Positions 6,200-7,050 of a stretch of DNA of 49,697 nucleotides are shown here, piece by piece (position 1 is the first letter of the stretch; each line of letters begins with the position of its first letter). Below the pieces are notes generated by a model, which saw only the letters and a list, made by a program, of their open reading frames with translations, was not told the DNA's origin and searched no databases. This stretch comes from Girardia tigrina (lineage: Eukaryota): assembly GCA_001938485.1 (NCBI GenBank), contig MQRK01254084.1, positions 5,231-54,927 on the forward strand, given 5' to 3'. The translations under genes were made by a program, and so were the position numbers.

Positions 6200-7050
6200 T
6201 ATTATGTATACAAATAACTAAATTGAAAAAAAACATTAACGTCACACTAAATAAAATATACATGCAGAATAACAAGCAAAAACGCATAGAAAGTGACGCA
6301 ATTGAAAAACACAAAATTATTCTTAAAATTCCATATTCAGAAGGATTAAGAGAGCTTAAAAAGATTATTCATAAAAACATCGATGAAATAAGAATTGTGT
6401 CGATCACGTCTAAAGTGAAAGGCTTTTTCTCGGTTAAATCACAAACCTATTGTGTAATATAAGCTAATCTAGTCTATTAATTTAATCGTCATGGGTGTCA
6501 AAATTCATACATTGGAGAGCAGGGATCAGCTGTGCGGCCAGGCAGACATACTTCTACGTAGCGTCCCTGAGAAACTAGATTGGGTTCGATTCCGTCTCTA
6601 GGCTAAAGTGTCTGAAAGCTAGCCGATTATTGAGGAAAAAGCCGGTAACGTATCGTATGCAGGAATGGGCCAGTAATCCATACACTAGACTACGCTTTAT
6701 TAATCTGGTTGTGAAGGCCGTGGGGAGTAGTGACCTCGCGGTGGATGGTTGGATTGCCACGTAATGATTTGGGATGAATCAATCCTGATGAAGGTGTTTG
6801 CAATGAGGCTGCTACATTGAAAAACCGGCTGAGCTAAAGCATGGATCCCCACATGGGGGAGTGCTTGTTGAGAACCATCAGCGTCCCAGGCCTCCTAAAA
6901 AGCCTCAGGCTTAATACCGTAAAGGATTTGAGGTGCATATTGGAGAGACACACGGGCATTTCGAGTAAGGTTGTAAAGATAGAAGCTCACCGATTTCGAG
7001 AGATGAGTTCTCCATTTTACAAAAAAATAGATTCACACTACGAACAGTAG
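6200..7050 (+). mobile_element. Penelope-like element fragment (linker + GIY-YIG endonuclease), interrupted by an insertion at YIGE|T
   Basis: IILKIPY...SKVKGFFSVKS...NLVY*F..HGCQNSYIGE, then the insertion at 6520-6940, then ET.RAFRVR. Confidence 0.85.
6520..6940 (+). ncRNA. Structured non-coding insertion element, copy 1 (421 bp), flanked by a TGGAGAG direct repeat
   Basis: GC-rich island with many hairpins, e.g. CAGGGA/TCCCTG, CTAGA/TCTAG, GGCTA/TAGCC, AAGCA..CCCC/GGGG..TGCTT, TGGGAT/GTCCCA, CTGATG/CATCAG. Direct repeats at 6513-6519 and 6941-6947 (ATTGGAGAG if extended). Strand inferred from G-U pairs. Confidence 0.7.

Follow-up and report, generated by a model that had tools for sequence, protein, structure and literature searches.

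What is inserted at position 6520 of this stretch of Girardia tigrina DNA, and how did it come to lie there? The stretch analysed (49,697 nucleotides, hereafter the window) had been described in a first-pass annotation as carrying a 421-nt insert with an elaborate fold, for which a tRNA-derived SINE, a splicing ribozyme and a recombinase-type insertion were all considered. We searched the genome's own assembly (1.43 Gb in 255,254 contigs, AT-rich) and compared the copies found. The insert at 6520-6936 is a real, structured non-coding retroposon, not a tRNA-SINE, an intron or a recombinase insert. We read it, with considerable confidence, as a non-coding retroposon of 417 nt with hundreds of copies, which has a predicted HDV-like ribozyme at its head and the tail of an RTE-like LINE with three zinc fingers, and that is likely copied by this LINE into GTG-N11^AC targets.

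Copies and ends of the element

The element and its flanking duplication occupy these positions:

6520..6936, plus strand: non-autonomous retroposon, subfamily A
6509..6519, plus strand: left target-site duplication, 11 bp, from comparison of junctions across copies
6937..6947, plus strand: right target-site duplication, whose first two letters (AC in most copies) double as the element's end

The search for subfamily A gave 2483 first-look candidates, of which 40 were scored and contain 46 matches (83-92% identity for full-length ones), and a diverged variant found at locus L033 led to 1949 further candidates. Sixty loci, less 3 partial ones and 18 duplicates, make up a set of 39 distinct copies, 19 of subfamily A and 20 of subfamily B. 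Copy and site counts throughout are rough because the assembly is fragmented. The first seven letters, one strand of helix P1, are identical in 35 of the 39 DNA copies. A target duplication flanks 34 of them, measuring 11-13 bp in 27 cases and 6-16 bp overall, and it begins with the two letters, mostly AC, in which the element ends. Neither the window copy nor the 39 copies showed poly(A), a repeat tail or a terminal inverted repeat (TIR), which agrees with the earlier description of a duplication-flanked insert lacking poly(A) and TIR.

An exact pattern of the ribozyme core occurs 586 times in the genome (control, 0), and the first 100 of these cores include many more subfamilies as well as LINE ends. 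A subfamily C (L152, L155, L156, L160 and L161) combines the same ribozyme core with a different body and tail in ~330-345 nt; it has an extra hairpin in J1/2, and most members begin with GGGGAC, giving a 6-bp P1 with a G.U or ambiguous first base. Elsewhere in the window, a 21-nt tandem repeat lies at 49580-49693, and a similar array interrupts the element copy in L166.

Predicted ribozyme, body and candidate promoter

The structural features of the window copy are the following, all on the plus strand:

6520..6613: predicted HDV-like ribozyme, from covariation on the 39 copies and a second set of cores
6520-6526/6563-6569: P1 of the HDV-like fold
6544-6549/6608-6613: P2 of the HDV-like fold
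6550-6552/6560-6562: P3 of the HDV-like fold
6553-6559: L3 of the HDV-like fold
6554-6555/6570-6571: P1.1 of the HDV-like fold
6575-6579/6597-6601: P4 of the HDV-like fold
6602-6607: J4/2, with predicted catalytic C6603
6583..6593: B-box-like 11-mer in the P4 loop
6628..6865: body of local hairpins
6628-6650, 6663-6683, 6688-6719, 6724-6737, 6753-6765, 6769-6788, 6838-6865: body hairpins in the 39-copy alignment

The 5' end of the element is a predicted HDV-like self-cleaving ribozyme, in which P1, P2, P3, P1.1 and P4 form the nested double pseudoknot in HDV order. Over 23 pairs in 39 copies, 93.2% of the cells are paired, against 16-51% with slid partners; the P1 count is lowered by rows L126-L130, which are one column off in this alignment. 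Two-sided changes are found at three pairs of P2, one of P3 and one of P1.1. The cells with such changes exceed 500 of 500 shuffles, a measure inflated by related copies, and the number of pairs with a two-sided change is not above shuffles (85/500); the covariation represents few subfamily-level events. When a second set of cores, 37 in number, was taken from loci picked by pattern, pairing was kept at 191/222 in P2, 101/111 in P3 and 59/74 in P1.1 (slid partners, 14-64%). One P1.1 pair in this set is U-A in 20 cores and C-G in 11, and one P1.1 pair is broken in 15 of the 39 copies. The change between U-A and C-G fixes the register, and the first pair is thus C-G, as found in 37 of the 39 copies. 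Position 1 of HDV-like ribozymes is a purine as a rule, and a C-G first pair is unusual.

The L3 pattern, comprising the U and G of the reverse wobble, is present in 17/19 copies of subfamily A and 14/20 of B, and a J4/2 of C followed by (G/U)AA in 13/19 and 18/20, respectively (GCTAAA in 50 of 70 copies). The reverse-wobble U and G of L3 and the C of J4/2 are described as features of HDV-like ribozymes (PMC3774820). A precedent for an active ribozyme with C1 is L1Tc, which is reported to begin with C and to cleave (PMC3185411, PMC4035085), its 'C1A39' mismatch being described as abnormal (PMC4035085). The window copy bears an A-C mismatch in P3 (6550/6562) where 36 of the 39 copies have A-U, and its own ribozyme may be impaired. 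Rfam gave no match to the window copy even at E 10; RF00094 matches the LINE-1 5' end at E 0.0055 (30.1 bits, below the gathering score of 50) and RF02682 a subfamily-B copy at E 0.048 (22.6 bits, below 44). In L3 the RF02682 consensus reads like the window copy, and the AG after it is identical too.

A hammerhead reading of CTGATGA at 6786 was rejected, no matching core being present there. Minimal hammerhead-like cores were seen elsewhere in the window, at 43371, 46282 and 14849 (plus strand) and 5929 (minus strand), with a weaker one at 26728 (plus strand); those at 43371 and 46282 lie within a 66-nt repeat pair, and several are near Penelope remnants.

The expectation of a structured, pseudoknotted RNA is thus borne out, but the pseudoknot that finds support is the HDV-like double one at 6520-6613. 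The pseudoknot proposed originally was a long one, AGCCGGT (6640) with ACCGGCT (6824) crossing TGGGAT (6770) with GTCCCA (6883). It is not conserved: these helices are 79.9% paired in the 39 copies, with end pairs (2/7 and 2/6) broken in about half of the copies; since their inner pairs persist, the helices are weakened rather than excluded. Complementary 7-nt pairs are not above chance (5 seen, 6.4 expected). Local hairpins overlapping the same strands are 95-97% paired, and the body as a whole shows 95.9% of cells paired with two-sided change at 17 pairs, in both cases for a structure derived from the same alignment. The body is therefore structured, in the form of local hairpins. Covariation across the 39 copies supports the multi-hairpin fold, but the energy of the single copy is at shuffle level: shuffled sequences fold as well as the 421 nt (z -0.23 on the plus strand, +0.24 on the minus strand), and seven sub-regions folded singly gave no signal (z +1.01 to -1.33). 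This energy result is the one that the earlier annotation had itself named as counting against its fold.

The alignment of copies, which the earlier annotation had rightly called for, also bears on the short motifs from which the three mechanisms had been drawn, GTGCG (6532), GGTTCGATTCC (6583) and CCAGT (6670): the B-box is kept mainly in subfamily A, and GTGCG, CCAGT and the long pseudoknot are not conserved. The perfect B-box stands as to position and exceeds chance (0/1000 dinucleotide shuffles), but it is not conserved across subfamilies (14/19 A, 0/20 B; 19/70 overall). One could suppose that subfamily A is transcribed by Pol III from this B-box in the P4 loop, the promoter setting the 5' end alone or with the ribozyme, and a dual promoter-ribozyme is described in Pr77 of L1Tc (PMC3185411). 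We consider this unlikely: a strict A-box is found in 0/70 copies and a loose one in 3/70; 51/70 copies are without the B-box, yet one start is common to 60/70; TTTT occurs in 9/19 B-box copies; and P4 loops vary freely among ribozyme cores. In the LINE, the P4 loop contains a sequence one mismatch away from the B-box 11-mer. With no A-box, no tRNA head and a B-box in a minority of copies, the tRNA-SINE mechanism falls away; ARAGORN found no tRNA in the window or in 6 loci, and Rfam found none. GTGCG close to the 5' end, AY close to the 3' end and the lack of poly(A) might suggest a splicing ribozyme of group II type or an element inserted by a recombinase, but either is hardly credible. GTGCG lies 12 nt inside the element, is poorly kept (16/19 A, 1/20 B) and appears in 344 of 1000 dinucleotide shuffles, and AY is within the duplication, of which it is the start. 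CCAGT is at its site in 2/19 A and 0/20 B copies and so cannot be a guide or exon-binding sequence; it sits in the loop of the hairpin at 6663-6683, which has two compensated pairs and a counterpart in the LINE 5' UTR. The features of a group II intron (GUGYG and AY at the boundaries, a domain V, absence of a duplication) were not found, nor was an Rfam intron match in the window, and duplications varying over 6-16 bp without a fixed short core speak against a recombinase.

Probable partner LINE and target motif

Four further features connect the element with a LINE lineage and with its target:

6891..6936, plus strand: 3' tail homologous to the LINE 3' end
13469..13672, plus strand: 5'-truncated 3' end of the partner LINE lineage
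6495..6497, plus strand: GTG of the target motif's upstream half (-14..-12 counted from the nick)
Opposite 6508/6509: inferred first nick (T^AC), with T at -1 in 35/37 and A at +1 in 36/37 sites

A sequence near 13365 had been taken for a second copy of the element. In blastn against the first copy it yields 12-15-mers at most, its CCAGT-bearing part at 13365 has no similarity (z 1.3), and the repeat match is confined to about 13480-13680, which is the LINE 3' end (z 56.5 over 13469-13666). This LINE end is also joined to a Penelope GIY-YIG site (13677-13868).

The partner LINE-1 has a single ORF with APE, then RT, and three C-terminal C2H2 fingers (Pfam on P0001, P0002 and L092); open frames of 1184-1332 aa are present in the genome, and the ATG is ~115 nt after the 5' end. 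In an RT tree of 65 of 151 rows (all those with a finger and every third of the rest), unrooted and without named references or an outgroup, 12 multi-finger proteins, among them P0041 (91% identical to these LINEs) and P0002 (up to 98% identical), are separated from 53 relatives by a branch whose SH-like support is 100. From its RT motifs we provisionally take the partner lineage to be RTE-like. A PDB sequence search with the C-terminal half of the LINE gave 0 matches. An RLE-type partner (R2/NeSL), guessed from the zinc finger, was rejected, since the ORF is APE-RT and the fingers are C-terminal. More distant APE-RT proteins (P0003, P0042-P0046, P0050, P0051 and P0084) were also seen to carry either two or three fingers at the C-terminus, the second finger having a conserved GWL motif.

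Full-length LINE-1 copies start exactly at an HDV-like ribozyme; LINE-2, a sister family, has its own, with 7/7 P1 pairs in 11 of 12 parsed ends (25 loci). The first pair is G1.U in both LINEs, and their P1 sequences differ from that of the short element but still pair. The short element shares with LINE-1 the ribozyme (z 12.4), the hairpin after it (z 4.9 in subfamily B and 1.9 in A) and the 3' tail (z 8.8 for B, 4.8 for A, against 200 shuffles), of which 45-55 nt are common to both. Both end in ...CAC with no microsatellite-like 3' tail, and LINE copies are 5'-truncated, a mark of TPRT. The tail at 6891-6936 is the predicted recognition site for the LINE reverse transcriptase. Because ~200 nt of the element's middle match neither LINE-1 nor LINE-2, its direct parent was not found; LINE-2 was rejected in this role, having no match to subfamilies A or B. 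In the L150 short element, the ribozyme has a P4 like that of LINE-2 and not of LINE-1, which suggests exchange of 5' parts.

Insertions follow the motif GTG-N11^AC, in which N11 ends in T. The GTG was noticed in a first set of sites (14/21, two of which are diverged Penelope sites) and then tested on new loci. Of 39 such loci, 26 had a duplication call and 23 a verified junction; removal of 3 Penelope-type and 3 nested sites left 17 independent non-Penelope sites, and 13 of these have GTG at exactly -14..-12, compared with 7 of 1166 TAC sites in the window. GTG is absent from that offset at 7/21 and 4/17 sites. The AC at +1/+2 was forced by the search pattern in the test set and is found unforced at 16/21 sites, and target letters beyond +2 carry no information. 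Among 12 LINE-1 5' ends outside Penelope, 4 show the same motif, for which the background rate is 0.28%. The short element and the LINEs thus share insertion marks, the GTG offset and the Penelope base described below, and this, with the shared head and tail, makes the partner LINE the likely agent of copying. Its C2H2 fingers probably read the GTG; the nuclease or another domain could do so instead, because RTE elements without such fingers also show a split signature (PMC6007223, PMC13295347).

Penelope hot spot, spread and relation to known systems

On either side of the element and its duplications lies a disrupted Penelope gene:

6220..6519, plus strand: left part of a Penelope-like remnant, which stops in the YIGE codons of a GIY-YIG endonuclease (tblastn with empty-site proteins, E 1e-22 and 8e-6)
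6948..7025, plus strand: Penelope-like remnant, right part

The window insertion splits the GIY-YIG gene within the YIGE codons, an empty-site protein matching Pfam PF01541 at E 1.4e-4 (22.5 bits, cut-off 22.6). The exact 29-letter empty site occurs 924 times in the genome. Of about 273 exact 3' ends, 93 continue into this one Penelope base, a share given as about one third because the search patterns are not strictly nested, and full 5' ends are at the same base in 7 of 19 LINE-1 and 10 of 12 LINE-2 cases. Four sets of sequencing contigs contain pieces of the family and the Penelope junction, though contigs cannot show ends or expression. On the tree, Penelope-sited copies are mixed with the others (14 changes, 13.6 in shuffles; 40 of 79 loci parsed), and 20 Penelope junctions comprise 16 different 5' forms; these indicate repeated independent insertions at the Penelope base. 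In a weight matrix built from 37 non-Penelope sites, the Penelope site outscores all 98,098 scored positions of the window, and for 924-10,000 such sites the matrix predicts 1-8% of insertions there. Since this is far below one third, the hot spot is not accounted for by the motif on its own, and an extra determinant or an assembly bias remains behind the excess.

The determinant might lie in the RNA: donors sited in Penelope would carry downstream Penelope letters at the 3' end, which would pair with a nicked Penelope target and favour priming. Such pairing suits an element without poly(A) or a repeat tail and a matrix that under-predicts the hot spot about 4- to 50-fold, and several LINEs are reported to base-pair at their 3' junction (PMC6007223). 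We hold it possible, though rather unlikely, as Penelope-sited copies are not clustered by descent, some insertions have Penelope on the left flank only (L025, L120, L122, L195 and L213), and donor flanks cannot supply GTG at unrelated sites. It is very improbable that the excess goes back to a single old insertion, or to a few, since multiplied within composite Penelope copies or duplicated in the assembly. Identical Penelope flanks cannot be de-duplicated and duplicate contigs do exist in the assembly (18 of 60 loci), but tree and junction diversity largely refute this, and the site is shared by two subfamilies of SINE and two LINE families, whose truncation points differ.

Several related arrangements were observed. 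Penelope-like GIY-YIG remnants without an insertion lie in the window at 9385-9489, 14522-14782 and 43045-43297. Judged by eye, the insertions at L041, L060, L129, L135, L178 and L234 hit the homologous YIG codon in diverged Penelope families other than this one. At L153, L157, L163, L164, L171, L220, L249 and L252, ends of LINEs and short elements stand head to tail with the same duplication between them; in L171, which is a non-Penelope site, the row consists of one LINE end plus two subfamilies. At L109:1294-1328 a sequence resembling a tRNA 3' end with CCA (ARAGORN calls no gene) precedes a subfamily-B copy with Penelope after it, possibly a template jump. Long inverted-repeat pairs in the window (11661-12802, 23251-31467, 23972-24521, 18340-18447 and 5247-7998) are likely ends of MITEs or DNA transposons.

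Given the ends, duplications, covariation, shared head and tail, motif and hot spot in the data, insertion by the partner LINE would proceed through read-through, self-cleavage, trans-mobilisation and priming on the terminal AC, by analogy with the established biology of non-LTR elements (TPRT and ribozyme release). A host or Penelope transcript would read through a copy, and the ribozyme is predicted to cut just before C6520 and so give a uniform 5' end; ribozyme release from co-transcripts is established for non-LTR elements (PMC6765202). The LINE protein would bind the 3' tail and, probably via its C2H2 fingers, the observed GTG about one helical turn upstream, and APE would nick T^AC. The RNA's terminal AC would pair with the freed DNA end and prime reverse transcription, and the second cut, mostly 11-13 bp away, gives the duplication. 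The Penelope GIY-YIG site, a strong match to the motif in many copies, takes about a third of the insertions. Later elements likely stack at the same base because the left half of the target survives insertion.

Ribozyme-headed non-autonomous retroposons, HDV-like ribozymes in RTE elements (reviewed in PMC6765202) and split RTE insertion signatures are each known separately. By analogy, the present element works as do NARTc/SIDER elements and R2 SIDEs, and its build is that of a bipartite non-autonomous RTE. NARTc, RIME and SIDER, with L1Tc/ingi, likewise have an HDV-like head and a tail shared with a single-ORF APE-RT LINE (PMC3185411, PMC4035085); L1Tc is reported to cleave before nucleotide +1, a C (PMC3185411), and has C-terminal C2H2 fingers according to the title of a cited reference. 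However, those belong to the Ingi clade and have poly(A) ends, and the distribution of L1Tc is called random (PMC3185411, PMC4035085), whereas here we find an RTE-like RT, no tail repeat, a body without detected LINE origin and a fixed target motif. R2 SIDEs also combine a ribozyme head with a LINE tail, insert site-specifically with duplications and lack a Pol III head, but they are rare, target rDNA and use R2/R1 enzymes, in contrast to hundreds of dispersed copies in many subfamilies. In bipartite non-autonomous RTEs (Bov-A, RTESINE1/2 and RTE-N2_Lch), 5' and 3' parts of an RTE-type LINE are joined without the ORF; the passages of PMC5786205 used here mention no ribozyme or target motif for them, and in the present element a ~200-nt middle without LINE match lies between. 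The RTE 'Tn-TA' signature resembles ours: a short motif lies upstream of the nick by about one helical turn, and the duplication's first letter matches the RNA 3' end. It is described, however, as having its T-stretch near -10, with tails of microsatellite type and insertions that are dispersed (PMC6007223, PMC13295347; such tails are tabulated for RTE elements in PMC6007223). Here we find GTG at -14..-12, T^AC and three zinc fingers instead, without a microsatellite, and another transposon provides the dominant site. Tx1- and R1-clade elements are APE-type LINEs that also insert into multicopy sequences, transposons included; target-specific families are mostly placed in early-branched, Tx1 and R1 groups (PMC4640811), whereas here the RT has its nearest relatives among RTE-like ones and the choice of target is partly specific (about one third in the short element, 10/12 in LINE-2).

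In the openly accessible papers searched we found no report of the GTG motif or of RTE-like elements in Penelope. What we did not find in print is an RTE-like lineage that combines a G-based motif of fixed spacing with three C-terminal fingers and a dominant site in the nuclease motif of another transposon. As a tentative proposal, which we hold at somewhat below an even chance, this would be an undescribed APE LINE lineage, sister to or within RTE, whose three fingers read DNA one turn from the nick and are tuned to the catalytic YIG motif of Penelope; together with a radiation of ribozyme-headed, Pol III-free SINEs it would parasitise and disable a rival and gain its transcripts. The system would allow a direct test of how APE retrotransposons gain specificity, through a separate DNA-binding module or through the nuclease itself, with graded specificity available within one genome, from about a third in the short element through 7/19 in LINE-1 to 10/12 in LINE-2. 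It also supplies hundreds of natural variants of HDV-like ribozymes, the C1-G register included.
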